A stretch of DNA of 64,000 nucleotides from Acidobacteriota bacterium (GTDB taxonomy: Bacteria > Acidobacteriota > Thermoanaerobaculia > Gp7-AA8), in the NCBI GenBank assembly GCA_021325515.1, contig JAJPHC010000051.1, forward strand, positions 27,998 to 91,997, read 5' to 3'. Positions 2,972 through 44,038 of the stretch are shown in pieces. A program made the position numbers and the translations under genes. The notes beneath the pieces are model-generated. The model ran no database searches and was not told where the DNA came from. It saw only the letters and a list, made by a program, of their open reading frames with translations. The stretch's first letter is position 1, and each line of letters starts with the position of its first letter.

Positions 2972-5027
<2,056 letters not shown>

Positions 5028-5110
5028 GGGCGATCTCCTTCGAGCGGAGATTCTACTTTGATCGCAACAATTGCGGGCGTATAAACGGAACCTCCAAGGG
5101 AGGCATTCGG

Positions 5111-8278: not shown

Positions 8279-8607
8279 TCAGCCCCGATCTCCGCGAGTT
8301 CGTCGCGCGCGAGCTGAAGATCGCGCCCGAGAAGCTGAAGGACACAGATCGCCTGCAGCACGATCTCGGACTCGACGGCAACGATGCCGCGCAGTTTCTT
8401 CAGAAATTCGCCGAGCGCTTCGACGTCGACATGAGCTCGTTCGAGTTCGAGAAGTACTTCGGCCGGGAGTCGCTGGGCTGCCTGCCGTTGTGGATCGTCT
8501 GGATCGTGATTCCGCCGCTGCGGCCGAAGGTGAAGCCGGTCACGCTTGCCGACCTGCAGAAATCGGTTCGCGCGAAGAAGTGGAAGCGGCCGCGGGCACG
8601 CGAGTAG
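8275..8607 (+). CDS. hypothetical protein (DUF1493-like)
   Basis: 110 aa ORF with a 4-nt overlap to the upstream gene. Weak resemblance to acyl-carrier-like DUF1493. Confidence 0.4.
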   Translation: MISPDLREFVARELKIAPEKLKDTDRLQHDLGLDGNDAAQFLQKFAERFDVDMSSFEFEKYFGRESLGCLPLWIVWIVIPPLRPKVKPVTLADLQKSVRAKKWKRPRARE

Positions 8608-16493: not shown

Positions 16494-17158
16494 GGGGTGC
16501 CGAGGGCGAACTCGGCGCGGCAGCCTTCGGTGACCCAGATGCCTCGGCTGTCAAAGCCCCACGTGCGGTTCATGATGCACGAGTCTTTGCTCAACTGGCG
16601 CGATACCTGGACGCCGAAACGCGTGTCGGCCTTACACCGGTGCCGCACGTTGTTGATCGACTCACAGACGACCGTGCCGTGATAGTTCGACGCGCTCGTC
16701 ATCGGACGCGCGCCGGTGATGAACTCCGCGCGGCAGCCGTTGTCGACCCACACTCCGCGGCTGTCATAGCCCCACGACTTTCCTTCCACGCAACTGCTCT
16801 TGCTCAACTGCCTGCTGATCTGCACGCCATAGCGGGTATCGGCATCGCAGTGATGCCGTTTGCCGCCCGACTCACAAACGACTGCACTCGTCATCGGCGC
16901 GGAGGATGCGTTGTAAGGCGAGACGAGAAAATCAGCGCGGCACCCGTTGTCGACCCAGATCGTGTTGCCGCTGGAGCCCCACGTCTTTCCCTGCACGCAG
17001 GCGCTCTTGCTGAGCTGGCGCAACAGCGTCACCGTGCCTGTTCCTGTAAACCCGCAGCGTTCGATTCTGCCGCCCGACTCGCAGCGGACGCTAACGTCCT
17101 CCGCGAACAGCGGCGCAGCACACAGCGCGACCGCCACAACCAGACAGAGCTTTTTCAT
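16490..17158 (-). CDS. secreted DUF3011-repeat protein (three Cys-containing repeats)
   Basis: Start MKKLCLVVAVALCAAPLFA (rc ATG at 17156-17158, GGAGG 5 nt upstream). Three repeats of CESGG..RH.C.....V..RQLSK..C..GKSWG....GVWVDNGCRAEF. The N-terminal 537-aa extension in the ORF track is an artefact. Confidence 0.65.
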   Translation of the reverse strand: MKKLCLVVAVALCAAPLFAEDVSVRCESGGRIERCGFTGTGTVTLLRQLSKSACVQGKTWGSSGNTIWVDNGCRADFLVSPYNASSAPMTSAVVCESGGKRHHCDADTRYGVQISRQLSKSSCVEGKSWGYDSRGVWVDNGCRAEFITGARPMTSASNYHGTVVCESINNVRHRCKADTRFGVQVSRQLSKDSCIMNRTWGFDSRGIWVTEGCRAEFALGTP

Positions 17159-17233
17159 TTGCAACCTCCGCCACACTGCGATGCTCAGAACTTGCCACAT
17201 CGCAGCGGGGGTCGAAGCTTTATCATCGCCACG

Positions 17234-19513
17234 ATGGACGAGCGCATCGGCCCCTACCGCATTCTCCGAAAGCTCGGCGAAGGCGGAATGGGCGTGGTCT
17301 ACGCGGCCGAGGACGAGAGGCTGCGCAGAACGGTCGCGATCAAGACGATTCGGGAAGCAGGCGATTCGACGGCGCGCGAGCGATTTTTTCGCGAGGCGCG
17401 CGCCGCCGCGAGCCTCACCCATCCGAACGTCTGCCAGATCTTCGATATCGGCGACGAAGCAGGCCGCCCTTTTCTCGTGATGGAGCTGCTCGACGGCGAG
17501 CCGCTCTCCTCCCGCATCAGCAGAGGCGCGCTTCCCCTCGGCGACTCCGTGCAGATCACGCTCGCGATTCTCACCGCTCTCGACGCGCTGCATGCGCGAG
17601 GCTTCATCCATCGCGATCTGAAACCGTCGAACGTCTTCCTCACCCCGGGCGGAGTGAAACTGCTCGACTTCGGCCTCGCGCGCGAGATGCATCCCGCGAC
17701 TCTCTCCGCGAACGACACGACGCTGCGTCCCGGCGAAGAGACTCCGCCGCTGACCCTGTCGGGGATGATCGTCGGCACGCCGCGCTACATGGCCCCCGAG
17801 CAACTGCTCAACACGCCGGTCGACGCGCGCACCGACCTCTTCGCCGCCGGCGCGCTGCTGTTCGAGATGCTCAGCGGCCACGCCGCATTCAACGAAGAAA
17901 ACACCATGCGGCTCTTTCACGCGATCTGCTACGAGGCGGCGCCGACGCTCGCCGGCTCGGCCGCGATCTCCGCCGTGAATCGCATCGTGCATCGCGCGCT
18001 GGCCAAGCGCAGCGACGAGCGCTATCAGTCGGCGCACGCCATGGCCAGCGATCTCCGCGAAGTGATGATGATCTCCGACGCCGCATCGCCGGTCGTCGCG
18101 CATCGCGTCACGCGCCTCATCGTCCTGCCGCTGCGCATGCTGCGCCCCGACCCGGAGATCGACTTTCTCGCGCAGGCGATCCCCGAGGGGGTGACGACGT
18201 CGCTGGCGGGAATCGGAACGCTGATCGTCCGTTCACCGATGACGGCATCGAAGATCGACACGAGCGACCTGAAGGCGCTGGCGACGCAGGCCGATGTCGA
18301 CGTCGCGCTCACCGGCACGCTGCTGCGCGCCAGTGAACAGATCCGGATGACGTCGCAGCTTCTCGAAGTTCCGGGCGGTACGGTGCTCTGGTCGCAGACG
18401 TCGCAGGCCACGATGTCGGACATCTTCGCGCTGCAGGACACGCTGACGCAGCGCATCGTCTCCTCGCTCGAGTTGCCGCTCACCGAGCGCGAGGCGCGGC
18501 TCGTGCGCGGCGATGTTCCAGCCAACTCGCGCGCGCACGAGTTCTATCTGCGCGCCGGGCAGCAGGGCGAATCGCCGGAGGGGTGGGCCATCGCGCGCGA
18601 TCTCTATCGCCGCGCGCTCGACGAAGATCCCCGCTACGCACTCGCCTGGGCGCGCGTCGCCCGCATTCATCTGCTGCTCGGAAAATACGCCGGCGACACG
18701 GCGAAGGAATACGAGCTCGCGGAATCGTCGGCGCGCCATGCGCTGGAGCTCAGTCCCGATCTGCCGCTCGGTCATCTCGCCGCGGCGATGATCGAGGTCT
18801 GCACCGGCCGCGCGCGCCAGGCGACGATGCGCCTGCTCGATCGCGTGCAGCGCGGCACGAATGATCCCGCCGTCTTCTCCGGCCTCGTGATGTCGCTCCG
18901 CTACTGCGGTCTGCTCGAGACGTCGATCACCGCCTACGAGCAGGCACACGAGCTCGACCCGAACATCTCGACCAGCGTGTCGCATTCGTACTGGATGGCG
19001 GGCCGCTACGAGGAAGCGTTGAAGACAGTTGATCGCGATCGCGACTTCGGCGCGGATGAAGCGCTCGTCCTCGATTCGATGGGACGCTATGAGGAGGCGC
19101 TGGCGATGTTCGCCGAGCGCAGAGAGCGGCTCGTGCGAAACGGCGCGCTGCCGACAAGTGCCGCGTTTCAGGTGCTGCAGGGCTTCGAGAGGTTTCTGCG
19201 CGGTGACCGGCGCGCGCTGGAGAGCCTCAGCACGTTCCGCAATTTCCCCGACCCCGAAGGGCGGTACTACATCGCCCGCGGCATGGTGCGAATTCAGGAG
19301 CTCGACATGGCGATCGAGATGCTCGAGGAAGCGGAGCGCGACGGCTTCTTCTGCTATCCGGTCTTCGCGCACGACCCCTGGCTCGATCCGCTGCGGCCCA
19401 ATCCCAGATTCATCGCGATGCTCAAGCGCGCCGAGGAGAAGATGCGTGAGGCGCAGCGCGCCTTCGATGCACATCCCGGAAGCAGAGTGCTCGTCGTAGG
19501 AGGAAGAAGTTGA
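17234..19513 (+). CDS. eukaryotic-like Ser/Thr protein kinase with C-terminal TPR-like domain
   Basis: ATG at 17234. GEGGMGVVY (G-loop), AIK (VAIK-like Lys), HRDLKPSN (catalytic loop), DFG, APE; C-terminal alpha-helical TPR-like region. The ORF-track start at 16640 is an upstream artefact. Confidence 0.8.
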   Translation: MDERIGPYRILRKLGEGGMGVVYAAEDERLRRTVAIKTIREAGDSTARERFFREARAAASLTHPNVCQIFDIGDEAGRPFLVMELLDGEPLSSRISRGALPLGDSVQITLAILTALDALHARGFIHRDLKPSNVFLTPGGVKLLDFGLAREMHPATLSANDTTLRPGEETPPLTLSGMIVGTPRYMAPEQLLNTPVDARTDLFAAGALLFEMLSGHAAFNEENTMRLFHAICYEAAPTLAGSAAISAVNRIVHRALAKRSDERYQSAHAMASDLREVMMISDAASPVVAHRVTRLIVLPLRMLRPDPEIDFLAQAIPEGVTTSLAGIGTLIVRSPMTASKIDTSDLKALATQADVDVALTGTLLRASEQIRMTSQLLEVPGGTVLWSQTSQATMSDIFALQDTLTQRIVSSLELPLTEREARLVRGDVPANSRAHEFYLRAGQQGESPEGWAIARDLYRRALDEDPRYALAWARVARIHLLLGKYAGDTAKEYELAESSARHALELSPDLPLGHLAAAMIEVCTGRARQATMRLLDRVQRGTNDPAVFSGLVMSLRYCGLLETSITAYEQAHELDPNISTSVSHSYWMAGRYEEALKTVDRDRDFGADEALVLDSMGRYEEALAMFAERRERLVRNGALPTSAAFQVLQGFERFLRGDRRALESLSTFRNFPDPEGRYYIARGMVRIQELDMAIEMLEEAERDGFFCYPVFAHDPWLDPLRPNPRFIAMLKRAEEKMREAQRAFDAHPGSRVLVVGGRS

Positions 19514-21250: not shown

Positions 21251-21925
21251 CTACGGCCCGACTGCGGTAATCGCTTCTTCCAGAAACTTCCGCACGCTGC
21301 CGCGGGAAGAGACGAGCAGCACGGCGCCGAACCATCCCTGCGTGTTCCAGAATCCCGACGACAGCGACTTCGCGATCGTCGGCCCTTCTGCGAACACGGG
21401 GGGCGTCACATACCAGTAAGGCTCGGGATACTGCGCATCACCGGCGAGAAAACCGACGCCTGTCGTCAGCCCATCGCCGTTGTCGATGCGCACCGCGATG
21501 TCGAAATGATGCGGCCAGCAGCGCGGCTTGCCGAACCGCTGCAGCTCCTGGTTAGCCGCGTGATAGAGGTCGGAGATCTCCTGCTGATCGCCGAAGTCGG
21601 GCGCGAACGGCTCGCCATGCGCCACCGGATGATCCGGCAGGGAGCCCTCCGCGGGGCGCTCCAGTTTCTGTCCGACCTTCGACTCGAAGAAGTGAAACGC
21701 ATCCTCGAGGCTCCGTCCGGCCAGAGGAAACTCATCGTCGCCGTACAGCAGCGTCAGATCGTGAAAGCGGATGCCCGCGCGGTCGTCGCCCTGAATCAGA
21801 GCCGTGCGCTCCGGCGACCAGTAGAAACTCGTGTGCGAGTCGTCGGCCTGCTTCGGCAGAGTCGTGCGGCCGACGCCGGCGGCAGCCTGCGCCGCCCAGT
21901 GCAGTTGAAGTCGTGTATCGATCAT
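21251..21925 (-). CDS. hypothetical protein
   Basis: Start taken at the internal ATG (MIDTRLQLHWAAQ...), 225 aa; coding-like codon bias; no recognised motif. The upstream extension is probably artefact. Confidence 0.4.
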   Translation of the reverse strand: MIDTRLQLHWAAQAAAGVGRTTLPKQADDSHTSFYWSPERTALIQGDDRAGIRFHDLTLLYGDDEFPLAGRSLEDAFHFFESKVGQKLERPAEGSLPDHPVAHGEPFAPDFGDQQEISDLYHAANQELQRFGKPRCWPHHFDIAVRIDNGDGLTTGVGFLAGDAQYPEPYWYVTPPVFAEGPTIAKSLSSGFWNTQGWFGAVLLVSSRGSVRKFLEEAITAVGP

Positions 21926-22029
21926 GATGCTGTGCTGCCAAATATACGCGCGATTCGACAACGCTGCGGCAACATTGCAGAATGCATCAACACCGACAAC
22001 TCGACGGAATGGAATGGAGGTTCTGGCCA

Positions 22030-22526
22030 TGACGACGACACGTGTCTGTTTCGCGATCCTCACCGCCTTCGCCCTCGCCTCTCCGATCGCCTTTGGGCAA
22101 CCCTCTCCCGAACAGAAGAAGCTCGAGTCGATGACCGGCAAGTGGCAGACCGAGATTGAATTCAAGGGCACGACGCCGGGCAAGGCATCCGGCACCGAAG
22201 AGTGCGAGTGGTTCGCCAATCTTCACATCGTCTGCCACGCCGATCTCACCGGCGCCGCAGGCCTCTATCGCGCGATGCGCACCGTGAGCTGGGTGCCGGC
22301 GATGAAGCAGTACGCCGTCTATACGATCGACAGCATCGGCTATGCAGCGCTGACGATGGGAACCAGCAGCGGCAACACGTGGACGTTTACTTCCGCGGGG
22401 CCGGGTTGGAAGACACGCCTGACCATGAAGATCTCCGCGAACGAGATCACATCCACTTCCGAGTACGCCGGCGCGGACGGCAAGTGGATCACGACCGCGA
22501 GCTCGAGGTCGAAACGGTTGAAGTAG
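22030..22526 (+). CDS. DUF1579 family secreted protein
   Basis: GGAGG 9 nt before ATG 22030; signal peptide MTTTRVCFAILTAFALASPIAFG; ...MTGKWQTEIEFKG... is a DUF1579-like lipocalin-type pattern. Confidence 0.55.
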
Positions 22527-22584
22527 TAGAGGGGCGTTGGGGGCCTGCGTTAAATCCGGCGAGAGCCATCGCTACCGCGAGCTG

Positions 22585-23630
22585 TCACCGTCCCCAGATC
22601 TGCGCGAGGCGCGCGTCGCGGCCGCAACCGTGCCGGTAGTACTTGTACCGGATCGGATTCTTGATGTGGTACTGCTGGTGGTACTCCTCGGCCGGATAGA
22701 AGCGGCTGGCGGCGATGATGTCGGTCACCACGCGCTGCTTCGGAAAGCGCTTCTGCACCGCATCGCGCGATGCGATCGCCGCGCGATGCTGCTCCTCGCC
22801 GTGATAGTAGATCGCGCCCTTGTACTGCTCTCCCTTGTCGCAAAACTGTCCGTACTGATCGAACGGGTCGACGTTGTGCCAGAAGATGTCGAGCAGCTTC
22901 TCGTACGACACCTTCGCCGGATCGAACGTCACCTGCACCGCCTCGCGATGTCCTGTGCCGCCCGACGAGACCTGTTCGTACGACGGATCGTTCACATTGC
23001 CGCCCGTGTAGCCGGAAAGCACACCGATCACTCCCGGCACCGAATCGAACGCCGCCTCCGAGCACCAGAAGCAGCCGGCGGCGAACGTCGCTACCGCGCG
23101 TGGCGGAGGAGCCGCGTGCAGCGGGAGAGAAACGAAGAGAATCGCCAGCATTGCTGCAGCGGCGAGTTGGGGTGCCACCGCCGGTTTGAACTTCTTCCGG
23201 AGCAGCGCATCCAGCGAGAAGAGACCGGGGCCGAACGCCAGGACGATCAGCGCCACCATGAGATAGGGGAACGCCGCATCTCCCGTGAAGCCGTCGATCG
23301 ATCCCCAGTCCTTCTTATCGCCGCTGACGATCGCCACGAACATGTTCACCGCCAGCGGGATGGAGATCAGACGCGAGGCGAGCCCGATGAACAGCAGCAC
23401 GCCGCTGACCAGTTCCAATCCGCCGACGAAGCGCGCCGTCAATTCCGGCATCGGGATCTGGCGCGTCGCGAAGAACTTCGCCACGTTGTCCAGGTTGTGC
23501 AGCTTGCCCCAACCGTTCGTTGCCAGCTCGTATCCGAACAACAGCCGGATCACGAGGAGCAGCGGGTCGCGGAGACGATCGAGCACCTTCGTCGTCCCCC
23601 AGTCATAGAGAGCCTGTAGTCGCGTCACTC
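22585..23630 (-). CDS. msrA: DoxX-family membrane domain fused to peptide methionine sulfoxide reductase MsrA
   Basis: GTG start (rc of 23628-23630) 7 nt after GGAGG, overlapping the upstream gene stop. N-terminal about 150 aa is DoxX-like with four TM segments (..LLFGYELATNGWGKL..), followed by an extra hydrophobic segment. The MsrA domain has AGCFWCSEAAF.. active site and no intervening stop. Confidence 0.75.
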
Positions 23631-24323
23631 GATTCCTCCGAAGATCCCCGCCGCGCTCCAGTCGCGGAACCAGGCGAACAACTCTTCCTGAGTGGCGCCG
23701 GTGGACTCGATCGCTTCGACCAGCGTCGCTCCATCGCAAAGCGCGGAGAGGAATTCGTAAGCCCTCTCATCCAGCGTGAAGCGATAGACCGAGTAATCGC
23801 GGCGATGGAACACGACGAACGTCTTCTTCGGCTCCGGCTCGACCAGCTCTTCCTCATCGCGAAACTTCTGAAAGAAATCGGCGACCGGGTAGTCGAACGC
23901 CATCAGGCGAAACGCCGCGATCATCTTCAGACGCGAATCAGGACCGACGGCGGCGATCGCCTCGGGGCCCAGCGCAGGTGTCTCTTCTTCGTCGAACACC
24001 TGCGTCATCGCGAGCTCGAAGCGGGCAAGGTCGGAGAGGAACGGATCGTCCTTCAGAAACTCAGAAAACGAGTCGCCGAGCCGGTTCAGCGTGTAGCTCC
24101 GCGACGGATGGACTTCGGAATAGCGAGTGACGAGATCGTGGAACTTCTCTTCCCCGAGGAATTGCGCGATCGCCGGATAATCGACGGCCATCGCGTCGTA
24201 CATGCGGATCGGATACATGTCGCGATAGATCGCGATCCGCTCCGGATCGACGAGCCGCGACGTATCTTCCGGCCAGTGCGGCGACGTGATGGCGTCGTAC
24301 ATCCACTCCTGAAACTCACGCAC
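23625..24323 (-). CDS. DUF2063 domain protein (MNIO partner protein, MbnC/BufC-like)
   Basis: DUF2063 blocks ..[28 protein letters not shown]...[14 protein letters not shown]. Start is either GTG 24321-24323 (overlaps the DUF692 stop by 8 nt) or ATG 24300-24302. Confidence 0.75.
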
Positions 24324-25140
24324 AGACGGCCTCCAGATATCCGGCGGCCTTTTTCGCCTCGGCGTGCACGGTCTCGAAGTCGGGGATCTCCTGATCCCAC
24401 TCGACCATCGTCGACACATCGCCGAATCGCCGGCACGTGTAGTCGTACAGCGACCACACCTCGTCGATGACGTGCCCCATGTGCGTGTCGATGATGTGCG
24501 TGTCGTACTTCGTGTGGCCGGCGAGATGGATCTGCACCACGCGGCCCTTCGGGATGTTGTCGATGTACGTCTTCGGATCGAAGCCGTGGTTGAAGGCGCT
24601 GACGTAAACGTTGTTGACGTCGAGGAGCAGGTAGCAGTCCGAGCGCTCGGTGAGCTGCGCGAGAAAGTCCCACTCCGTCATCGTCGACTCTTTGAACGCC
24701 ACATAGGTCGACGGGTTCTCGAGCACGAGCGGCCGCTCCAGGAAGTCGCTGACGACACGCACGCGCTCGGCGATGTGCTCGAGTGCGCGCTCGTGTGTCG
24801 GCACCGGGAGAAGATCGTGCGTGTTCTTTCCCATCACCCCTGTCCAGCAGAGATGGTCCGAGACCCAGCGTGCATTCACGCGCTTCGCGAGCTTCTTCAA
24901 CTTGCGGAGGTAGTTCATGTCGAGCGGATCGGTTCCGCCGATGGACATCGAGACGCCGTGCAGGACGACCGGATAGCGCTCGGCAATCTTGTCGAGCACG
25001 TACGCCGGACGGCCGCCGCTGTCCATGTGATTTTCAGAGAGCGCTTCGAACCAGTCGATCTCCGGCTCCTGTCCGAGGATGTGGGAGAAGTGGACGGTGC
25101 GAAGGCCGATGCCGATGCCTAGATAGGGGAACTCGGTCAT
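24316..25140 (-). CDS. DUF692 / UPF0276 family protein (MNIO, multinuclear non-heme iron oxidase, MbnB-like)
   Basis: ATG (rc 25138-25140). [45 protein letters not shown] and HLAGH are the hallmark DUF692 TIM-barrel blocks. Confidence 0.85.
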
Positions 25141-25205
25141 TTGCGTAGTTGGATGCCGAATGCTGGCTGCCGGTTTCCGGCAGCCAGCAACAGGCGCATG
25201 ACTGA

Positions 25206-25583
25206 TTACGAAGCCTTCGGAGGAACGGCGCAGCCGCCCTTGCCCTTGCACTCGTTCTTGCCATCCGGGCCCTGGCCCTTGCAGGCGTTCTTACCCTTGC
25301 AGTCGTGCTTGACGTCGGACGAGGCGCAGCCGCCCTTGCCCTTGCAGGAGTTCTTGCCGGCGCAGCCCTTGTCGCCGCTCTTGCAGTTGCCTTTGCCCTT
25401 ACAACCGTTCATGCCTTTACAGGCATGCTTGTCGGCCGCCTTGTCAGCCTTCTTGCTGTCGGCCACCTGGACCTTGCCATTGTCGCTGAGCGAGAACGTA
25501 TTGGCGCGGGCCTGGGTACCAACGGTCAAACCTGCAACGACACCACCGAGAACGAGAACCTTTGCGAGATCACGTGAATTCAT
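25206..25583 (-). CDS. secreted Cys/Lys/Gly-rich small protein, candidate RiPP precursor (bufferin-like)
   Basis: AGGAGGG 6 nt before the ATG. Sec signal [27 protein letters not shown]. Mature part has 10 Cys in spaced C-x5-7-C pairs ([36 protein letters not shown]) in a K/G-rich background. First gene of the MNIO operon. Confidence 0.65.
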
Positions 25584-25760
25584 GGGAGTAACTCCCTCCT
25601 TTCAATCGACAAACTACGTGTGGAACTTCACGTCGGACTCATGCACTTCTCACTTTTCTGTCACGCGGGCGGGGGTCGTGAAGCAGACACAGTGGATGCC
25701 TCCTCTTGCCGTGGGACCGAGCTCCGATTGTTGATGGAGACGGAATGTTACGCCGCTAGC

Positions 25761-25780
25761 CGTCACATCGCAATGTGACG
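25761..25780. promoter_or_regulatory. perfect palindrome CGTCACAT-cgca-ATGTGACG upstream of the MNIO operon (candidate operator)
   Basis: 8-bp arms with 4-nt spacer, about 180 bp upstream of the precursor start codon, in the 300-bp intergenic region. Confidence 0.3.
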
Positions 25781-25790
25781 TTGACCCACC

Positions 25791-25847
25791 AACGTCCTCC
25801 CTCGCCCCCCAACGTCCTCCCTCGCCCCCCATCGTCTCCCTCGCCGC
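25791..25847. repeat. imperfect 20-bp tandem direct repeat x about 2.8 (AACGTCCTCCCTCGCCCCCC)
   Basis: aacgtcctccctcgcccccc / aacgtcctccctcgcccccc / atcgtctccctcgccgc. It sits between the histidine-kinase stop and the MNIO operon promoter region. Confidence 0.6.
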
Positions 25848-25886
25848 AAAGCGGGGATAGGGGCCAGGGGTGAGGGGCAAACCGTC

Positions 25887-27278
25887 CTACACGGCGAAGC
25901 TGAACGTCGTTCCGGCGTTCTTCCTGCTCTGCGCGACCAGCGACGCTCCGTGCAACTCCAGAATCCTCTTCGCGATCGCCAGTCCGAGGCCGGCGCCGCC
26001 GCGCGGCGTCGACTCCTCCCCCTGCCAGAATCGGTCGAAGATATAAGGCAGGCTCTCCTCGGAAATGCCGCACCCGGTGTCGGTGACCCGCACCGATAGT
26101 TTCTCCTGCTGTGGCATCAGCGACACCGTGACGCTTCCCCCTTCGGGGGTATAGCGGATCGCGTTCTCGATCAGATTCTCGAGCACGCGCTCCATCAGTG
26201 CGATGTCGCCTTTCACCAGCGGCAACGCCGGCTCGAGCTGCGCCGTCACAGACACCCTCGCCTGTTCCGCGCGCAACTGAAACTTCTGCACGACGTCCTG
26301 CACCAGCTCGGCCATCGAGAACGGCTCGATCTGGAGCGGCGTCATCTTCGAATCGAGCTTCGCCAGTTCGAACAGCTCATCGACGAGTTTTCCGAGCCGC
26401 TCGCTGTGCTTGCTCGCGATCTCGAGGAAGCGCCGCTGCTCGTCGGGAGTGAGCTGCCCCTCCTTTAATAACAGGGTCTGGATGTAGCCCTGCAGCGACG
26501 CGAGCGGCGTGCGGAGATCGTGCGATACGTTCGCGACGAGCTCGCGCCTGTGCAGATCGACTTCCTTGAGCATCTGCACCTGCCGCTCGAATGCGTGCGC
26601 GAGGCGATCGACTTCATCGCCCGAGCCATTCACCGGAAGCCGCACCTCCCCGCTCGACTCCACGGCACTCGCGAGATTGCGCAGCCTTCGCGTCATCGCG
26701 CCGAAGAGCACGAGCCCCGCGGCGAGCGCAAAGAGCAGCGCGGCGATCGCGAGCATCACGCTCTGCTGAAGAATCCAGCTATTGCGGATGTGCGCCATCG
26801 CCGAGTCCTGCTGCTCGCCGCCGAGGATGACGTAGAGGTAGCCGTCGTCGACCTGCGCCACGGAAAAGATCTTTCGCCGCGAAAGATCGCGCGGATCGTC
26901 TCCGTGAATCGGCAGACGATCGCCGCGCATGAACGCTTCGATCGGCACCAGCGAAACGCTCTTGCGCTTCACTTTTCCCGGAGGCGCGGAAAACGCCCGG
27001 ATGGCTCCCCTCGCATCGAGCAGATAGATCTCGATCGACGGATTGACGGCCATCAGCGCGTCGAAGACGTTATCGAGCATCTTCCAGTCGATCGTGCCGT
27101 CGTGAATGACAGGCTTCTGCCGCACGATCGTCGCAGCAAGCCCGCGATTCAACCGCTGCGTTGCCTCTTCGTCATACAAGCGCGACGTATGAATCGTCAG
27201 CGCGACATCGACCGCTGCCGCGATCAGAAAGAGTCCGAGGAGGACGACGGCGAGCTTGGCGTAGAGAGACTTCTTCAT
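25887..27278 (-). CDS. sensor histidine kinase (TM-HAMP-HisKA-HATPase)
   Basis: Start MKKSLYAKLAVVLLGLFLI (rc ATG 27276-27278). H-box VSHDLRTPL; N-box NLIENAIRYT; G-boxes DTGCGI and GGAGLGLAIA. Confidence 0.8.
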   Translation of the reverse strand: MKKSLYAKLAVVLLGLFLIAAAVDVALTIHTSRLYDEEATQRLNRGLAATIVRQKPVIHDGTIDWKMLDNVFDALMAVNPSIEIYLLDARGAIRAFSAPPGKVKRKSVSLVPIEAFMRGDRLPIHGDDPRDLSRRKIFSVAQVDDGYLYVILGGEQQDSAMAHIRNSWILQQSVMLAIAALLFALAAGLVLFGAMTRRLRNLASAVESSGEVRLPVNGSGDEVDRLAHAFERQVQMLKEVDLHRRELVANVSHDLRTPLASLQGYIQTLLLKEGQLTPDEQRRFLEIASKHSERLGKLVDELFELAKLDSKMTPLQIEPFSMAELVQDVVQKFQLRAEQARVSVTAQLEPALPLVKGDIALMERVLENLIENAIRYTPEGGSVTVSLMPQQEKLSVRVTDTGCGISEESLPYIFDRFWQGEESTPRGGAGLGLAIAKRILELHGASLVAQSRKNAGTTFSFAV

Positions 27279-27293
27279 AGGGAAAAGAAGCGA

Positions 27294-27363
27294 AACGCAG
27301 AACGCAGAACGCAGAATGAAGAATTGAGAAGAGCGCATCGCTTGAAGTCGGTTTTCATTCTGC
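27294..27363. repeat. degenerate tandem heptamers (ACGCAGA)x3-(ATGAAGA)... plus 11-bp inverted repeat CGCAGAATGAA / TTCATTCTGCG
   Basis: Fills the short intergenic gap between the response-regulator stop (27355-27357, inside the inverted repeat) and the kinase start. Same heptad flavour as the hairpins at 1678 and 57017. Confidence 0.6.
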
Positions 27364-28071
27364 GGCCATTGCCTCTGTGAACTTGTAGCCCACTCCCCAC
27401 ACGGTGAGGATCCACTTCGGATCGGACTGATCTTCTTCGATCTTCGAGCGCAGCCGGTTGATGTGCGAGTTCACGGTGTGCTCGTAGCCGTCGTGGCCAT
27501 AGCCCCAGACGGAATCGAGGAGTTGCGCACGCGTGTAGACGCGGCCGGGATTGCGCGCGAACTGCAGCAGGAGATCGAACTCCTTCGCCGTGAGCTCCAC
27601 TTCCTCGCCGCGCAGCGTCACCTTCCTCTTCTCGACTTCGATGAGGAGATCGCCATATTGCAGCCGCGACGCCGGCGCTTCTTCCTCCGGCTTCGCACTC
27701 AAGGCATCGACGCGCCGCAGGAGCGCCTTCACGCGCGCGATCAGTTCGCGGATGTTGAAGGGCTTCGTCAGATAGTCATCGGCCCCTAGCTCGAGACCGA
27801 CGATGCGATCGACATCCGCCGAGCGCGCGGTGAGCATGAGGATCGGCGTGTAATTCGTCCGCGCGCGGAGCCTGCGGCAGATCTCGAGCCCATCGATGCC
27901 CGGCAGCATCAGATCGAGAATGATGAGATCGAACGGCTTCTTCGCCGCCAGCTCCAGCGCCACGTTGCCATGGTGTGCGAGCGTCACCTCGGCACCGAGA
28001 TCCTTGAGATGCATCTCGACGAGCTGGGCAATATCACGGTCATCTTCGACTACAAGGATGCGGCGAGCCAT
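27355..28071 (-). CDS. OmpR-family response regulator (REC + winged-helix)
   Basis: MARRILVVEDDRDIAQLV.. receiver domain, D54 context ILDLMLPGIDG, C-terminal winged helix LTAKEFDLLLQFARNPGRVYTR. Confidence 0.85.
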   Translation of the reverse strand: MARRILVVEDDRDIAQLVEMHLKDLGAEVTLAHHGNVALELAAKKPFDLIILDLMLPGIDGLEICRRLRARTNYTPILMLTARSADVDRIVGLELGADDYLTKPFNIRELIARVKALLRRVDALSAKPEEEAPASRLQYGDLLIEVEKRKVTLRGEEVELTAKEFDLLLQFARNPGRVYTRAQLLDSVWGYGHDGYEHTVNSHINRLRSKIEEDQSDPKWILTVWGVGYKFTEAMAAE

Positions 28072-28163
28072 GCGAACATTCTGATGCCGGCGGACTGGAA
28101 ATGGTTTCGCCCGATTCCACCGCGCGCCCGCGAACCCGCGAGCCCGCGTAACCAGGAGGTCTC

Positions 28164-29138
28164 ATGCACCATCGCAAACTCGGCCAGCTCGAAGTCTCCG
28201 CCATCGGTCTCGGCTGCATGGGGATGTCGGAGTTCTACGGGACTCACAACGATGCGCAGTCGCTCGACACCATTCATCGCGCGCTCGATCTCGGCGTGAA
28301 CTTTCTCGACACGGCAGACATGTACGGGCCGTTCACGAACGAGAAGCTGGTGGGCCGCGCGATCAAAGGGCGCCGCGACTCCGTGATCCTTGCGACGAAG
28401 TTCGGCAACGAGCGGAGGGCGGACGGATCGTGGGTCGGCATCAACGGCCGGCCGGAGTACGTCCGCGCCGCGTGCGATGCCTCGCTGCTGCGGCTCGGCG
28501 TCGATCACATCGATCTCTACTATCAACATCGCGTCGATCCGAAGACGCCGATCGAAGAAACGGCCGGCGCGATGTCCGAGCTCGTTCGCGCGGGCAAGGT
28601 GCGATTCCTCGGTCTCTCCGAGGCGGCACCGAAGACGATCCGCCGCGCGCATGCGATTCATCCCATCACTGCGCTGCAGACTGAATATTCACTCTGGAGC
28701 CGCGAGCCGGAGGATGAGATTCTTCCGACGGTGCGCGAGCTCGGCATCGGGTTCGTCGCCTACAGTCCGATCGGCCGCGGATTTCTCTCCGGCCGCATCA
28801 AGAGCGTCGACGATCTCGAGCCGGATGACTATCGCCGCAACAACCCGCGATTCCAGGGAGAGAACTTCCAGAAGAATCTCGATCTCGTGAAGAAGATCGA
28901 ACAACTCGCGAAGAAGCGCGGCGTCACGCCCGCACAACTCGCGATCGCGTGGGTGCTGTCGCGCGGCGAAGACATCGTCCCGATTCCCGGCAGCCGCCGC
29001 ATCCCGCATCTCGAGGAGAACATCGCGGCGGTGAACATCACATTGACGCGCGAAGAGCTGAGGCAGATCGACGACGCGGCGCCCGCCGGCGCGGCGGTGG
29101 GAGATCGCTACCCCGACATGTCGCGCGTGAATCTCTAA
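28164..29138 (+). CDS. aldo/keto reductase family oxidoreductase
   Basis: 324 aa. [22 protein letters not shown] and KVRFLGLSE are canonical AKR motifs. Confidence 0.85.
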
Positions 29139-31831
29139 CGCGCAATCGGCTCTTCGAACGCGATCGGCGACGGCCGGTGCGTCTGCGCACTTTCTGCGAA
29201 GGCCTGCCGCATCTTCTCGTATTGCGGCAGCCAGAGATCACCGGCGCGCTTCGCCTGCTCCATGTGCGCCAGCGCCTCGGGGTACTGCTGTTCTGCGTAT
29301 AGCAATCGCGCACGGATGATCTCCGTGCGCGGCGCCTTCCGCAGCGCATCGGCCTGATCGAGCAGACGCTTTGCCTCCTGCAGCCTTCCGGCGCGAATCA
29401 TCGGGTAGGCAGCCCCGGCATAAACATCGGGGCCGAGATCGGGAACGTGAATCCTCCGGTCGATCGCGAGCGCCGCTTCCGCATTGTTCAGCGCTGCATC
29501 GAGCTCTCCGCGCCGCGCCCGCGCCTGCGCGAGATCGGAAAGGATCAGCTCCTCGATCGTCGTACCCTGATACGACCGAGCCTGGGCAAGCGCCTGCTCA
29601 AGCAGTGCGATCGCGCGCACTTCGTCGTTTCGTGCGTAGGCCCAGATCCCCTGCATCAGGATCGCCTGCGTCTCGGTGCCCTTGTCACCCACTTCGTGTG
29701 CAAGCTGTGCAGCCTGATTCGACATCTCCTCGGCGCGCGCCAGCTCTCCCTCGGCAGCATAGATCTGCGCCAGGTTTCCCATCACGATGCCGCTCGTCTC
29801 GCGATACCCGAGCTGCTTTCCGAGCTGCAGCGATTCTTCGAACCACTTCCTCGCGGCCTTGTTGTCATTGCGCCGCATCGCATTCGTCCCGAGGTTGTTG
29901 AGAGCTGCAATCTTGATATAGGGAACGTTCCGCTCCCGCGCGAGCCGCAAGGCCTTCAGTTCGGCAGCGTCGGCTTCGTCCAGGCGGTTCATCGACCGGA
30001 GAAAGACTCCGCGTGCGTTCAGCGCATAGACTTCGATCTCCACTCTTCCGAGCTGCTGCGCGAGCTTCAACGCTTCCTGCGTCGCGCTGTCTGCCACAGC
30101 GACATCGCCCCGAAGCTGGCGCGCGAATCCGTGATTGATCAGCGCCGACACCAGCACGCTCTTGTCGCCCCGCCGGCGGGCCTCGCGGATGACTTCTTCC
30201 ATCGCCGCATCCGCCTCCGCGGCTCGCCCTTGTCTGGCGTAGAGCTCAGCCAGCGCCTGCTTCGCATCCAGGAATTCCGGATCGCGATCAGCCGCAACCG
30301 CGAAGTACTTCTCCGCAAACTTGCCGCCGCGAGTGATCTCGACCTCGCGCCCGATGTCGAACGCCAGCGCAGCAAACGCGTCGCTCGTCCCGCGTCCAAC
30401 GCGCCGGACGAAATGGCGTGGATCGGCGCGCTTCGCGAGCTGATCGGCCATCTTGTTCGCCGCTTCGGTGAGAATCGTGGAACCGGCTTCCTGCGGCCGC
30501 TCCGTGTGACGCGCGTCGGAGATTGTGTAAGTGATGACGTATCGATCGTCGCGAAATGACACCGAGGAATCGACGATGGCGTCCGCGCCAACCGCTTCCA
30601 GCAGCCGCTTGCGATCGTCCGCGGTCTTCGGTCCGAACTTCGTCACCGCTTCCGGCGCTACGACATCGAGACTGGGCACCCGGTGGAGCGAGCGAATGAC
30701 GTGATCCATGAGACCGAGCTCGATCCATTTCATCCCCCGATCGCCGGTCGCGTTGCGGAAAGGAAGAATGATGATGCGGGGATTCGCTTTCCAGCCGATC
30801 AACTGCGAGCGCTCGCGAATGCGTTCCGCGAGAAAGATGCCGGCGACGGCGAACAGCGCGAGCGCGGCCGCCGATGCGATCCAGCGCAGTACCCTCCAGC
30901 GCCGCGCCGGCCGCTCCGCGATGCGGGCAAGAACATCGCCCACTTCACCGACCGAGGGGCGTTCCGACGGCGCGAGCGATGTCATTCGGCTAACCAGACG
31001 CTGCACCTCGCCGTCGCCGAGGTCCAGCGGCACCACTTGTGCGGCTCTCACCTTCTGCAGCAGCTCGGCGACCGATTCCACCTCGCCATAGGCCGGCGCG
31101 CCGCCGGACAGCATCTCCTGCAGCATCACGCCGAGGGAGTAGACGTCGCTCGCCGGCGTGAGCGGCAGGCCGCGAGCCTGCTCCGGCGACATGTAGTGCA
31201 GCGTTCCGACGAGGCTTCCAACGGACGTCTTGCTGTCGTCCGGCGCGGTCGATTCGACGCCGATGATCAGCGTCTTCTCCAGATCGATCGCCGCTGCCTC
31301 CACCATCGCGGGATCGGCGTATTCCGCCTCCACTGCGCGCGCCAGTCCGAAGTCCAGCACCTTCACATCGCCGGAGGAGGTCAGCATCACGTTCTCCGGC
31401 TTGAGGTCGCGATGAATGATGCCGCGGCCGTGCGCGACCGCCAGCACGCGCGCGATCTGCAGCGCGATCTCGACCGCCTCCTGCTTCGAAAGCCCGCTCT
31501 CGATCCGCTCGCGCAGCGTTGGTCCATCGATCAGCTCGAGGACCAGCCAGTCGCCGTCGACCAGCTCGAGGACGTCCCAGATGCGGCAGATGTTCGGGTG
31601 ATCGAGCTTCGACAGCACGCGCGCTTCGCGAAGAAACCGCGTGCGGAGCTGAGGATTCAGCCGGCGCTCGGTCGTAATCGACTTCAACGCGACCGCGCGC
31701 TCGAGCTTTTCGTCCCAACCGCGGTAGACCTCTCCCATCCCGCCCGCGCCGAGGAGAGCATCGACGCGGATGCGGCCGACGTAGGAGCCGGCGGGCAGAG
31801 GCATGGAAATAAGGTAACAGACGGCAGGCAC
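29135..31831 (-). CDS. Ser/Thr protein kinase with TM segment and large C-terminal TPR-repeat domain
   Basis: [24 protein letters not shown] and SPEQ kinase subdomains, then a hydrophobic segment and many TPR-like helical repeats (AxxxxxxAxxLxP.. periodicity). Start could be an internal Met. Confidence 0.75.
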
Positions 31832-35989: not shown

Positions 35990-36454
35990 ATGGAAGCCTT
36001 CGATCGCTCGATGAATCGCCGCACACTGCTCAACTGGTTTCTCGGCACGTCGTTCGGCGCGCTGATCGCGTCGGTGATCTACCCCGTGCTGCGGTACATG
36101 ACTCCACCGAAGATCGCCGAGGCGAGCACGAATCAGGTCGAAGCCGGCGAAGTGAATGATCCCGCGCTGCTCGACAAGGGCTACAAGATCATCCGCTTCG
36201 GCGCGGAGCCGGTGATTCTCGTCAAGGCCGCGGAAAACGATTTCCGCGCTTTCTCCGCGACGTGCACGCATCTCGACTGCATCGTCGGCTTCCAGAAGGA
36301 CCAGACGCGCATCTACTGCAACTGCCACGGCGGCTGCTACGACCTCACAGGCCGCAATGTCTCCGGTCCGCCGCCGCGGCCTCTCACTCCCTACAAAGTC
36401 AATGTCGTCTCGAAGGGCTCGGGTCCGGGCCTGATCGTCGTATCGAAGGCGTAA
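35990..36454 (+). CDS. Rieske [2Fe-2S] iron-sulfur protein (bc/b6f-type)
   Basis: GAGG 8 nt before the ATG; twin-arginine-like [13 protein letters not shown]; cluster boxes CTHLDC...CNCHGGCY. The track start at 35975 is a GTG overlapping the upstream stop. Confidence 0.85.
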
Positions 36455-36456
36455 TC

Positions 36457-39231
36457 ATGAGCGCAATCTTTGAGTGGCTCGATGACCGGCTCGGCGTCTC
36501 CGTCCTGCGCGAGGTCGCATCACACAAGACCGTACCCTCGCATCGCTACACCATCCTCTACTACCTCGGCGGCATGACGCTCTTCTTCTTCCTCGTCCAG
36601 GTCTGCACCGGCGTTCTGCTGATGCTCTATTACAGACCGTCGGCCGAAGAAGCCTTCGAGTCGGTGGAGTTCATCATGACCACAGTGCCGTTCGGATGGC
36701 TCATCCGCAGCGTGCACTCCTGGTCTGCCAATCTCATGGTGTTCTTCGCCTTCCTCCATCTCGTGAGCGTCTTCTTCATGAAGGCGTACCGGCCGCCGCG
36801 CGAAGTCACCTGGATCAGCGGCGTCATCGTGCTCTTCCTCGTCATGGGCTTCGGCTTCTCCGGCTATCTGCTGCCGTGGAATCAGCTCGCGTTCTTCGCG
36901 ACGAAAGTCGGCACGGACATCGCCGGCGTCGTCCCGCTCGTCGGCCCATGGATGGTGCGCTTCCTCCGCGGTGGTGATCGGGTGAGCGGCGCGACTCTTT
37001 CGCGCTTCTACGGCTGGCACGTCGCGATCCTTCCCGCGATCACGACCGTCATCCTCGGATTGCATCTCGCGATGGTGCAGCTCAAAGGGATGAGCGTGCC
37101 GAAGTCGATCGAGGACGATGCGAATTCGCGCAAGCCGATGAAGTTCTTCCCCCACTTCGCACTGCGCGATCTCACCGGATGGATCATCGCCCTCGGCTTC
37201 GTCGCCGCACTCGCCGCCCTCTTCCCCTGGGAGCTCGGCGACAAGGCTGATCTCTTCGCGCCCGCCTACGAGAACATCCGCCCCGAGTGGTACTTCGTCT
37301 TCATGTTCCAGACGCTGAAGCTCGTGCCCGGCGGCTCCATCGCCGGCATCGAGTACGAGGCGATTCCGATCATGCTGTTCAGCCTCGCCGGCGCTCTGCT
37401 GATGGCTGTCCCCTTCCTCGACCGCAGACTCAAGCGCGATGGAAAGAGCCCGCTCTTCACCACGATCGGCGTGCTCGCCATCCTCTTCATCGTCGGCATG
37501 ACGTGCTGGGGCTACGGCAACATCGTGCCGCTGCTGGTCATGGCGCTCGCCGCATCGCTGCTCGTCCTGCTCGGATGGATCACGAGGCCTCCGCGCGCGA
37601 TGATGATGATCGCGCTGCTGTTCCTCGCCGCACACGCCTGGGGCGCGACGCCGAAGACGTCGTGCACCACCTGCCACAACAGCGAACTATTCGATGCCGC
37701 CGGCAAAGCGAAGGTGACTTCGTTCCTCACGAAGGACGTGCATGCGCAGATCGGCCTCTCCTGTCACGATTGTCACGGCGGCAATCCCGATCCTGCACTG
37801 AGCACCGATCCGGCTGCCGCCATGGATCCCAATTACAAGAAGAACCCGTTCCGCGGAATGCCGGCGCGCAAGGACATTCCCGACTTCTGCGGCCGCTGCC
37901 ACTCCAGCGCGGCCTTCATGAAGCAGTACAACCCGGCCGCGCGCGTCGATCAGGTCAGTGAGTACTGGACGAGCCGCCACGGCCAGCTTCTCAAGCAGGG
38001 CGATACGAATGTCGCGGTCTGCATCGACTGCCATTCCGTGCACGACATCCGCCGCAGGATCTCACCCGACTCGCCCGTCTACAAGACGAAGGTTGCGGAG
38101 ACCTGCAGCCGCTGCCACTCCGACGCGAACAGGATGGCGAAGTACGGCATCCCCACCGATCAGTACGCGCGCTGGCGCGTGAGTGTGCACGCCAATGCGG
38201 TGCTCAACAAGGGCGACATCGCAGCGCCTAGCTGCAACGACTGTCACGGCAATCATGGAGCGACACCTCCCGGCGTCGAGTCGATCAGCTTCGTCTGCGG
38301 ACGCTGTCACGCGCGCGAAGCGGAACTGTTCCGCAAGAGCCCGAAGTACGACGCCTGGCAGAAGCACAACGAGATGATGAACGGGATGGCGTGCTCCACG
38401 TGTCATGCCGACGGCAAGCGCGCCAGCGTCACCGTGACGCACTTCAGCGAATGCCTCACCTGCCACGAGAATCACGGCGTCGTCCGTCCGACGATCGCCC
38501 TGCTCGGCAATCTGCCGGAAACACCCTGCGCGTTCTGTCATGAAGGCGTCGGCCCGCTCGCCGCACGCATCGCGGAGATGCCGGAAAAGGCCGAGCACTT
38601 CAAACAAGTGCGCGACAGCTTCCTCAAGGTTGCCGATGCCCAGCATCTGAAAGGCAATGACCGTTTCGACTGGCTGGTTGACCAGGCGCTGCACCTCCCC
38701 TTCCATCGCGTCGGCGACGCGAAGCAGAACGACAAACTGCGTCCCGAGTTCCTACGGCTCTTCGACAAGTTCCGCATCGGCAAGACGCACTACGTCTACA
38801 AGGATGTGAAAGGGAACGACGTCTCGGTACCGGTCCGCAGTTGTGGCGACTGTCATGAAGAAAAGGATTCCGCCGGCCTGGCGAATGCGCGCGCGTATCT
38901 CGATGCCACGCGCAGCGTGACCAGCATGGTCGGACGCGCCGATCGCATCCTGCTCTCCGCGCATCGCGGCGGTGTCGAAGTGCGCAAGGTACGCGCCGAG
39001 CTCGATGGAGCCATCGACTCCCAGATCGAGCTCGAGACGCTGGTGCACACGTTCAACGCGCCTGAGGTGCAGGCCAAACAGAAAGAAGGACTGCAGCACG
39101 CCGAGGCGGCGCTGGTCGCCGGACAATCGGCGCTCGACGAGTTGCTGTATCGCCGCAAAGGATTGTTGATCGCGCTCGGAATCATCCTTCTGGTTCTCGT
39201 CGCGCTGATCACGAAGATCAGGACGTTGTAG
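36457..39231 (+). CDS. cytochrome b (b6 plus subunit-IV-like, 8+ TM) fused to a C-terminal multiheme (11 x CxxCH) cytochrome c domain
   Basis: The N-terminal about 420 aa has the cytochrome b His ligands and the PEWY motif ([14 protein letters not shown]). The C-terminal about 500 aa carries CTTCH, CHDCH, CGRCH, CIDCH, CSRCH, CNDCH, CGRCH, CSTCH, CLTCH, CAFCH and CGDCH, plus a final TM anchor. The track start at 36262 is artefact; the ATG at 36457 follows the Rieske stop. Confidence 0.85.
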
Positions 39232-40848: not shown

Positions 40849-40898
40849 CTCCAGACTGTGACCGCTGAAATGGGATTTGAACTCGAAGGAGACAAGCA

Positions 40899-43049: not shown

Positions 43050-43060
43050 GGGAGGCGGCG

Positions 43061-44026: not shown

Positions 44027-44038
44027 AGGAGTGAGACG

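Follow-up and report, generated by a model that had tools for sequence, protein, structure and literature searches.

A bufferin-type gene cluster with a DoxX-MsrA fusion and an adjacent two-component system in an uncultured Acidobacteriota bacterium

Introduction

Bufferins, for which the class name captophorins has been proposed (PMC13097082), are recently recognized and very widespread copper-handling peptides whose core genes encode a precursor, an MNIO-family enzyme, a DUF2063 partner and a DoxX protein (PMC12452194, PMC11626156). Here we describe a 64,000-nucleotide stretch of contig JAJPHC010000051.1 (hereafter the window) from an uncultured Thermoanaerobaculia (Acidobacteriota) soil bacterium, in which four genes resemble such a cluster and the DoxX protein is fused to the methionine sulfoxide reductase MsrA. 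Is this a genuine bufferin-type gene cluster, and what may a natural DoxX-MsrA fusion, the main interest of the locus, say about the role of DoxX?

The evidence presented below supports a genuine bufferin-type cluster and suggests that its genes probably form an envelope-stress operon, which would join a copper-binding pathway of this type for a peptide that is made on ribosomes and modified after translation (RiPP) with periplasmic repair of methionine sulfoxide. The functional unit exceeds four genes: a two-component system, a conserved upstream box, an intercistronic hairpin and a gene for a 224-aa protein also belong to it. Bufferin-type clusters as a kind are already known, and the assignment of this one in an earlier note on the same DNA stands. 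As far as the searched literature shows, the following are new: a 6+4 tandem precursor as part of a deletion series of 12-, 10- and 8-Cys forms; a dedicated two-component system with a defined candidate operator, which bears on how clusters lacking SigF/NrsF are regulated; and the DoxX-MsrA fusion, whose proposed origin is the capture of a bufferin cassette by an msrA operon. A survey of MNIO clusters lists 17 unclassified 10-Cys precursors and set aside Response_reg and HATPase_c neighbors as not relevant (its Table S1).

The locus encodes a bufferin-type cluster

The features of the locus are as follows, in the order of transcription.

27355-28071, minus strand: OmpR/PhoB-type response regulator, 238 aa (Pfam Response_reg and Trans_reg_C)
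25887-27338, minus strand: sensor histidine kinase, 483-aa open reading frame (ORF) with a probable start, MKKSLY, at 27278 (HAMP, HisKA, HATPase_c)
25628-25664, minus strand: conserved 37-bp direct-repeat box (alignment of precursor upstream DNA)
25206-25583, minus strand: bufferin-2-like precursor, 125 aa (NCBIfam BufA2 NF050166, below cut-off)
25155-25195, minus strand: intercistronic stem-loop (folding energy z-score)
24316-25140, minus strand: MNIO (DUF692) maturase of the BufB clade, 274 aa (PF05114, NF050167)
23625-24323, minus strand: DUF2063 partner, BufC/PME1-type, 232 aa (PF09836)
22585-23628, minus strand: DoxX-MsrA fusion gene (Pfam DoxX at aa 23-102, PMSR at aa 180-329)
23179-23628, minus strand: DoxX part of the fusion, aa 1-150 (PF07681)
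22585-23178, minus strand: fifth transmembrane segment (aa 154-172) and MsrA domain (aa 176-347) of the fusion (TIGR00401)
21251-21925, minus strand: DUF5996-like conserved 224-aa cytoplasmic protein (synteny in relatives)

The earlier note had described four co-directional minus-strand genes. All four ORFs (precursor, MNIO, DUF2063 and DoxX-MsrA) are present in the ORF listing, and an independent gene caller returned the same four genes on an identical sequence (ENA ERZ27279688 k141_1653134, 262,976 bp). The coordinates that the earlier note gave for the first three genes, as listed above, were reproduced; the start that the note gave for the fusion, 23630, is out of frame and is replaced here by a GTG at 23628. 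Its report of gene overlaps applies to MNIO and DUF2063, which overlap by 8 nt, and to DUF2063 and the fusion, whose GTG overlaps the DUF2063 stop as GTGA with 4 nt common to both genes, but not to the precursor and MNIO genes, which are separated by a 65-nt spacer containing a strong hairpin. The DUF2063 gene is translationally coupled to both neighboring genes.

The MNIO provides the clearest assignment. It matches Pfam PF05114 with 365 bits and passes the NCBIfam equivalog 'MNIO family bufferin maturase' (NF050167 MNIO_BufB) at 369.5 bits against a cut-off of 310, while falling below every cut-off among the NCBIfam models HvfB, ApyH, ChrH and MbnB (39.7 versus 325 for MbnB). These searches place it in the BufB clade of RiPP maturases and not in a non-RiPP clade, a matter that the earlier note had left to Pfam/TIGRFAM profiles. 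Among solved structures, 3BWW is the nearest (E 6e-49), and the motifs HG.S, SDHL, EN, DVNN, H.AGH, DTH and E.D are kept in the alignment of the two proteins; their His, Asp and Glu residues are presumably iron ligands, as in the structures of MbnB and TglH. The DUF2063 partner passes PF09836 (67.7 bits, cut-off 27.2) and scores 60.6 with the HvfC model, under the cut-off of 142; a PDB sequence search with this protein gave no useful match. Together with DoxX and the BufA2-related precursor described below, these matches support the bufferin-type reading, and the statement in the earlier note that bufferin operons carry DoxX is confirmed by the publications cited above for the core genes, DoxX being common in such clusters without being obligatory. 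Recognition of the cluster is far beyond chance, with hidden Markov model E-values down to 1e-109 and a gene order that is found again on over 25 independent contigs.

The precursor is a tandem 10-Cys relative of bufferin 2

An AAGGAGG sequence lies upstream of the precursor ATG. By inspection, the N-terminus MNSRDLAK is followed by a hydrophobic stretch and an ARA/N cleavage motif, suggesting a Sec-type signal peptide at aa 1-27 (..TQARA/NT) with a predicted cut after Ala27. Sec signal peptides are used by bufferin precursors (PMC11626156), and the proposal that the peptide is secreted thus holds as a prediction at the sequence level. The 98-residue core contains 21 Lys, 18 Gly and 10 Cys, which make up 50% of its residues, in agreement with the earlier description of a 10-Cys, Lys- and Gly-rich peptide. 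Its Cys residues form a first repeat (Cys 55, 61, 67, 74, 80 and 86) and a second (Cys 95, 101, 112 and 118). Since eight of the ten directly precede a Lys, the precursor fits 'multiple Cys-Lys motifs', one of the precursor categories of the captophorins (PMC13097082).

The precursor is the sole window protein to match the BufA2 model NF050166 in the NCBIfam search (E 4.8e-11); it matches no other model, and its 42.7 bits do not reach the curated cut-off of 60. Repeat 1 alone scores 38.2 bits and repeat 2 19.1 bits; genuine 12-Cys relatives, at 51-55 bits, are also under the cut-off. Because of this sub-threshold score, we treat the precursor as a divergent tandem BufA2 relative and not as an equivalog. 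Six or twelve Cys are expected of the Buf_6/12Cys family and the precursor has ten. No DUF2282 match was found in the precursor with Pfam, and a PDB sequence search with it gave no useful match.

Database searches return thousands of relatives, the named ones coming from Thermoanaerobaculia and Acidobacteriota metagenome-assembled genomes. Among the best 120, ten Cys are found in 64, eight in 28 and twelve in 18. In the alignment, most 12-Cys forms are two copies of one repeat, and the 10-Cys forms, including the window precursor, bear in repeat 2 an 8-residue deletion (GCKxGDxGCA region) in which Cys III and IV are lost. The same deletion is present in both repeats of the 8-Cys forms. This comparison identifies the window precursor as a tandem 6+4 derivative of 12-Cys Buf2, and the 12-, 10- and 8-Cys forms offer a natural deletion series for asking which Cys residues the MNIO modifies.

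One contig (L004, 2511-8202) carries a Buf1-type set (MNIO, DUF2063 and a weak DUF2282 match) and, about 1.5 kb downstream, a 12-Cys Buf2-type precursor followed by a 109-aa MNIO call and genes for DUF2063 and a TonB-dependent receptor. Decay of the cluster or a frameshift in the assembly could explain this arrangement.

DoxX is fused to an MsrA of the exported type

The description of DoxX fused to a methionine sulfoxide reductase is borne out by two profile matches. The DoxX domain passes PF07681 (61.7 bits, cut-off 23.6), has four predicted transmembrane helices, contains no Cys and aligns over its full length with a stand-alone DoxX of 165 aa, complete from end to end, that belongs to a sister 8-Cys cluster. 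The MsrA domain passes TIGR00401 (180.2, cut-off 108.1), and its GCFWC active-site motif is invariant in 40 of 40 fusion sequences. AlphaFold2 (AF2) models the MsrA domain with a predicted local distance difference test score (pLDDT) above 90, and Foldseek relates it to E. coli MsrA (TM-score 0.70-0.77, 43-45% identity) and to the MsrA domain of PilB (3bqe, TM-score about 0.87).

The junction between the two domains suggests where the enzyme acts. All 79 of the 79 nearest single-domain MsrAs have an N-terminal signal peptide as well as the GCFWC motif. When aligned across the junction, the fusion consists of a whole DoxX including its basic C-terminal tail, then the hydrophobic core of an MsrA signal peptide plus LPLHA, then mature MsrA; its fifth transmembrane segment, which ends ..SLPLHA/APPP, thus appears to be the former signal peptide of an exported MsrA. 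The most basic loop of the fusion, RKKFK, precedes this fifth hydrophobic segment, so the MsrA domain should face the periplasm, there remaining tethered or being freed by signal peptidase.

The fusion is conserved within a narrow range. Both domains occur together in about 40 clusters (90% identity) that are 51-100% identical to the window protein, only two GTDB species representatives have the fusion, and a HMMER search over 1.84 billion 50%-identity representatives returned one full-length fusion representative. Ten longer MsrA-containing matches were considered as independent DoxX-MsrA fusions and rejected, as none has a DoxX domain; they are MsrA-MsrA, MsrB-MsrA, DUF4174-, PqqD-, NUDIX- or BacA-MsrA proteins or have no other recognized domain. 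Among the architectures seen, P0405, P0436, P0391 and P0410 represent BacA-MsrA, PqqD-MsrA, DUF4174-MsrA and NUDIX-MsrA.

A two-component system and a conserved box precede the precursor gene

The regulator directly precedes the kinase wherever sequence suffices, except in L006, where two other genes lie between them. Across fusion-type and bufferin-less syntenic loci, regulator orthologues are 80-84% identical and kinase orthologues 65-69% identical; the DUF2063 protein (about 47%) and the fusion (about 54%) are less conserved than the regulator (about 80%) and the kinase (65-69%). The periplasmic domain of the kinase is highly conserved and has one invariant Met. The sole full-length NCBIfam alignment of the kinase is to the heavy-metal sensor kinase subfamily TIGR01386, at 175.6 against a cut-off of 292.6.

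The box has the sequence GTGAY-N6-GTGAGAA-N6-GANTCC-N3-GTGA, with GTGA direct repeats at offsets 0, 11 and 33, and in the window it ends 44 nt upstream of the precursor ATG. OmpR/PhoB-family regulators bind direct repeats at helical spacing. In the alignment of upstream DNA, a TAGnnT element follows the box, and TAGTTT in the window (25611-25616) is a possible -10 element. The box was found exactly once in each of four fusion-type loci, and the window likewise contains a single exact match, at 25628-25664. A test for autoregulation gave no further exact match in the window, where the four 2-mismatch matches do not exceed chance expectation; in L006, a box copy lies upstream of the kinase gene. 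A metagenome scan with the box returned 26 contigs. In 24 of the 26 it lies upstream of a precursor homologue, with its end 39-44 nt before the ATG in 22 (all those with a placeable start codon), and in the other two it is upstream of a precursor truncated at the contig end; gene order is identical wherever enough sequence is present. We consider the box a putative response-regulator site and activator-dependent promoter, through which the operon is probably under two-component control. A sigma-70 promoter scan of 22400-28300 gave zero matches, a result that is uninformative for activator-dependent or non-canonical promoters.

The hairpin in the precursor-MNIO spacer has a 13-bp perfect GC-rich stem with the core GCUGGCUGCCGG-AAA-CCGGCAGCCAGC (-33.7 kcal/mol, z = -4.9). 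Hairpins of unlike sequence occur at the same site in L005, L007 and L002, with z from -4.75 to -8.8. A simple terminator scan did not report the precursor-MNIO hairpin and, because it has no U tract, it is not a canonical terminator. It may act by attenuation or mRNA stabilization, and we read it as a means that would raise the ratio of precursor to enzymes.

The spacer that separates the kinase stop from the box contains other repeats, namely a 20-bp tandem repeat of 3.1 copies (25785-25845, plus-strand unit CCCCCCAACGTCCTCCCTCG) and an 18-bp palindrome (25762-25779, GTCACATTGCGATGTGAC). Neither is conserved in L005 or L006, where this spacer is about 80 nt.

Syntenic loci relate the fusion to an msrA operon

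Every fusion-type locus examined has the order kinase, precursor, MNIO, DUF2063, DoxX-MsrA, with syntenic proteins 51-100% identical, and more than 25 metagenomic contigs share this layout. The gene for the 224-aa protein directly follows DoxX-MsrA in at least seven relatives (L005, L091-L093, L095, L096 and L117), and follows it after a gap of about 1.2 kb in L098 and L111; in relatives it is the seventh module gene. Its homologue in L005 passes Pfam DUF5996 (26.3, cut-off 25). The 224-aa protein has 720 homologues, of which all source-named ones are called 'hypothetical protein', and a PDB sequence search with it gave no useful match. In the window, a DUF1579 gene with a signal-peptide-like N-terminus (22029-22526, plus strand) lies between DoxX-MsrA and the 224-aa gene. 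Because the fusion and the 224-aa gene are only about 80 nt apart in the closest relative, L095 (proteins 92-97% identical), the DUF1579 gene looks like a recent insertion that interrupts the operon.

Two bufferin-less loci, L114 and L116, show the same surroundings with a stand-alone msrA. The order in L114 is ABM-regulator (84%)-kinase (65%)-exported MsrA-Rieske/FMN reductase-224-aa homologue (56%), and homologues of the ADH and ECH genes of the window adjoin; L116 is similar, with a different insert, and there too the 224-aa homologue follows msrA. The exported MsrA of L114 is 81% identical to the MsrA domain of the fusion (range 78-81% for the two loci). In both, msrA is preceded upstream by the box core GTGAY-N6-GTGAG, and therefore the two-component system and its promoter serve msrA where the bufferin genes are absent. 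In window-type loci, the precursor-MNIO-DUF2063-DoxX cassette lies between the two-component promoter and msrA. Given that stand-alone exported MsrAs occur widely across phyla and that the fusion is restricted to a single narrow lineage, we take the fusion as derived, and the direction of the event would thus have been from cassette into msrA operon.

These loci contain some further elements. In L114, a gene for the Rieske/FMN-reductase fusion (4814-6004) lies between the exported msrA and the 224-aa homologue, and the ADH and ECH genes are separated by one for a VKOR homologue (8031-8426); periplasmic MsrA might have either product as a redox partner. In L116, positions 6840-6990, which fall between the box and the start codon of msrA, contain several copies of a roughly 16-bp repeat (GACAGGCAGGATTGCC and variants) in both orientations.

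Proposed mechanism and alternatives

We infer the chemistry, the choice of modified Cys, copper as the ligand and regulator binding in the following scheme. The kinase and regulator would activate a promoter that carries three direct GTGA repeats a short way upstream of the precursor gene, with copper as the presumed inducing signal, and the precursor would be produced in excess of the enzymes, aided by the hairpin after its gene. In the cytoplasm, the BufB-type MNIO and its DUF2063 partner may oxidize the inner Cys of each repeat to 5-thiooxazoles. Every characterized MNIO and DUF2063 cluster installs 5-thiooxazoles and binds copper (PMC13097082), and in Caulobacter Buf2 each of the four central Cys shows a change of -4.03 Da, with Cys I and VI unmodified and probably in a disulfide (PMC11626156). 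By analogy, the window precursor would receive six thiooxazoles, predicted at Cys 61, 67, 74 and 80 of repeat 1 and Cys 101 and 112 of repeat 2, together with two disulfides. The product would be exported by the Sec pathway, its signal peptide removed after Ala27, and its outer Cys pairs (55-86 and 95-118) would become disulfides, yielding a two-domain periplasmic metallophore that buffers copper (predicted mass change about -28 Da, or -24 Da when reduced). The former signal peptide, as a fifth transmembrane helix or a cleavable internal signal, would place MsrA in the periplasm, where envelope proteins would have their methionine sulfoxide repaired under the same stress. The cassette of precursor, MNIO, DUF2063 and DoxX would have come between the two-component promoter and its original target, msrA.

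A bufferin cassette lodged in a methionine-repair operon that predates it speaks for a recurring association of copper buffering with the periplasmic repair of methionine sulfoxide. YedY, which appears in one of the regulons concerned, is MsrP. In E. coli, copper induces periplasmic MsrPQ through CusSR, and this system is needed for copper tolerance and CusF function (PMC9302797). The regulons under ECF (extracytoplasmic function) sigma factors in Neisseria and Haemophilus contain msrAB together with a DoxX/DUF692/DUF2063 cluster (PMC7907618), the Caulobacter sigmaF regulon contains buf1 and buf2 together with YedY (PMC3511200), and some oxazolin clusters contain genes for a molybdoenzyme (oxidored_molybd) and a ferric reductase (PMC12452194).

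Several observations weigh against an operon for copper and methionine-sulfoxide stress. A CusS/CopS/SilS-type copper-sensor assignment was rejected: the kinase misses the TIGR01386 cut-off, as given above, and the regulator scores 184.8 with the heavy-metal regulator model TIGR01387, whose cut-off is 279.2. Conservation analysis found no invariant His or Cys in the sensor domain of the kinase. Among the 20 large window ORFs scanned, a subset of the total, there are no cop, cus or other copper-resistance genes, and the same ORFs contain no reductant genes. The precursor is under the BufA2 cut-off and its AF2 model, built from a 41-sequence alignment, has a pLDDT of 45 and gives no fold or disulfide information, and because of both the two-domain fold and the disulfide pairs are proposed by analogy. 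The periplasmic location of MsrA is a reading of the junction and the basic loop, and DoxX is dispensable in Caulobacter for both modification and copper tolerance (PMC11626156). Finally, the two-component system and box drive msrA in loci devoid of bufferin genes, which points to oxidative stress at least equally. The system might instead answer mainly oxidative or chlorine stress through an oxidant-sensing two-component system, as E. coli HprSR does for msrPQ, with MsrA as the main effector; the Cys-derived peptide would then serve for redox buffering or scavenging in the periplasm, or would guard against oxidant-mobilized metals. Because the kinase fails the heavy-metal model and has no conserved metal-type ligands, an oxidant signal is a serious rival, and we give this account a real but clearly minority chance. 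It draws further support from Haemophilus influenzae, whose DoxX/MNIO cluster is induced by HOCl through RpoE2 along with msrAB (PMC7907618), and from the precedent, named in the title of PMC4436054, of a periplasmic sacrificial peptide acting with a methionine sulfoxide reductase. A methionine-rich scavenger peptide recycled by MsrA was rejected, however, because the core has a single Met whose position is not conserved, and the mature peptide is thus no methionine sink. In addition, all characterized products of MNIO and DUF2063 bind copper (PMC13097082), and Cu induces the buf genes of Caulobacter, which Fe, Zn and Mn do not (PMC11626156).

The fusion itself invites the proposal that DoxX and MsrA are one functional unit, in which DoxX is the quinone-linked membrane redox partner of periplasmic MsrA, as MsrQ is for MsrP. 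We think this unlikely. The fusion is intact in all of the roughly 40 clusters, down to 51% identity; DoxX clusters and periplasmic Msr are co-regulated in Neisseria and Haemophilus, with YedY in the corresponding Caulobacter regulon; and the oxidored_molybd and ferric-reductase genes of some oxazolin clusters resemble MsrPQ. DoxX is moreover dispensable for peptide modification, and its role therefore lies elsewhere. On the other side, the DoxX domain has no Cys, quinol reduction of the MsrA disulfide is thermodynamically unfavorable, the fusion makes up a single 50%-identity cluster out of 1.84 billion representatives, sister clusters make do with DoxX alone, and insertion of the cassette beside msrA explains the fusion simply. 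If DoxX and MsrA did form one unit, the fusion would reveal what DoxX does in bufferin, oxazolin and Hvf clusters, a question of long standing. The general form of this proposal, that DoxX in all these clusters is a membrane redox module for periplasmic sulfoxide or thiol repair, which exchanges electrons of the quinone pool with an exported MsrA-type enzyme, is doubtful to a like degree; if true, it would account for a DoxX that peptide maturation can do without but that is inherited and regulated together with Msr systems in several phyla. Two other alternatives concern the peptide. The MNIO could make methanobactin-like oxazolone-thioamide pairs in place of 5-thiooxazoles, since the two structures are isomeric and hard to distinguish, and oxazolin of the related Hvf system was first assigned in this way (PMC11252979, PMC13097082). 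This is improbable: the MNIO fails the MbnB model and passes the BufB model, and later work (PMC13097082 and preprints of 2025-2026) reassigns DUF2063-dependent MNIO products to 5-thiooxazoles. Even less probable, to the point that we give it hardly any weight, is that the small ORF encodes an unmodified, metallothionein-like secreted Cys-rich protein and that the MNIO has another substrate. Orphan precursor genes with no nearby MNIO do exist (L118; PMC12452194) and the AF2 model of the precursor is disordered, but the precursor is homologous to BufA2 and conservedly linked to a BufB-clade MNIO and DUF2063 on more than 25 contigs, and the operon encodes no other candidate substrate.

Comparison with known systems

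The proposed operon combining a bufferin-type pathway with methionine-sulfoxide repair is closest to two Caulobacter vibrioides clusters. It shares with buf2ABC (CCNA_02999-03001; Buf_6/12Cys) the order of precursor, MNIO and DUF2063, the BufB-clade MNIO and a Sec-signal precursor with a repeated C-K-G-x-N-x-C pattern. In contrast to buf2, its precursor has a tandem 6+4 Cys arrangement (not 6 or 12) and lies below the BufA2 cut-off, a DoxX is present (buf2 has none) and is fused to MsrA, control would be exerted by the adjacent two-component system instead of SigF/NrsF, and the phylum is Acidobacteriota. The four-gene core of buf1ABCD (DUF2282 bufferin 1, DoxX protein BufD1) is the same, with DoxX last, and repeat 2 of the window precursor has four Cys like Buf1, which has two modified Cys and one disulfide; unlike buf1, the window precursor has no DUF2282, DoxX is fused to MsrA and there is no ECF sigma/anti-sigma pair.

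The Hvf clusters of Haemophilus and Neisseria (oxazolin/gonophorin) also encode an MNIO, a DUF2063 protein, DoxX and a secreted Cys-, Lys- and Gly-rich precursor, and share one envelope-stress regulator (RpoE2/SigE) with an exported methionine sulfoxide reductase (msrAB), to which they are functionally coupled. Their coupling is regulatory, through an ECF sigma factor acting on separate loci, whereas the window has a gene fusion in one operon with an adjacent two-component system. The Hvf precursor has EGKCG repeats, and the window proteins do not pass the HvfB, HvfC and HvfX models.

The E. coli HprSR/CusSR-msrPQ systems resemble the locus in placing a two-component system beside periplasmic methionine sulfoxide repair with a membrane component, and msrPQ is induced by both copper and HOCl (PMC9302797). 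However, E. coli uses the molybdoenzyme MsrP and the heme protein MsrQ where the window has thiol-based MsrA and DoxX, the operator sequences differ, and the window kinase does not pass the heavy-metal sensor model. In Neisseria PilB (Trx-MsrA-MsrB), an exported MsrA is likewise fused to a redox-related module, and the MsrA domains are structurally close. The partner domain of PilB is a soluble thioredoxin fed by DsbD, whereas that of the window protein is a Cys-free, four-helix DoxX membrane protein.

Other features of the window

Two large proteins combining a Ser/Thr protein kinase with TPR (16640-19513, plus strand, and 29135-31831, minus strand) flank the locus, and a comparable Ser/Thr kinase-TPR pair flanks the 224-aa homologue in L115. 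Elsewhere in the window, a plus-strand cluster (36262-45901) encodes a 989-aa fusion of cytochrome b to a multiheme cytochrome c, a 716-aa MtrC/MtrF-like multiheme cytochrome, a 321-aa multiheme cytochrome with paired CXXCH motifs, and two large proteins (538 and 620 aa) with no Pfam match. This cluster looks like an extracellular or periplasmic electron-transfer module.

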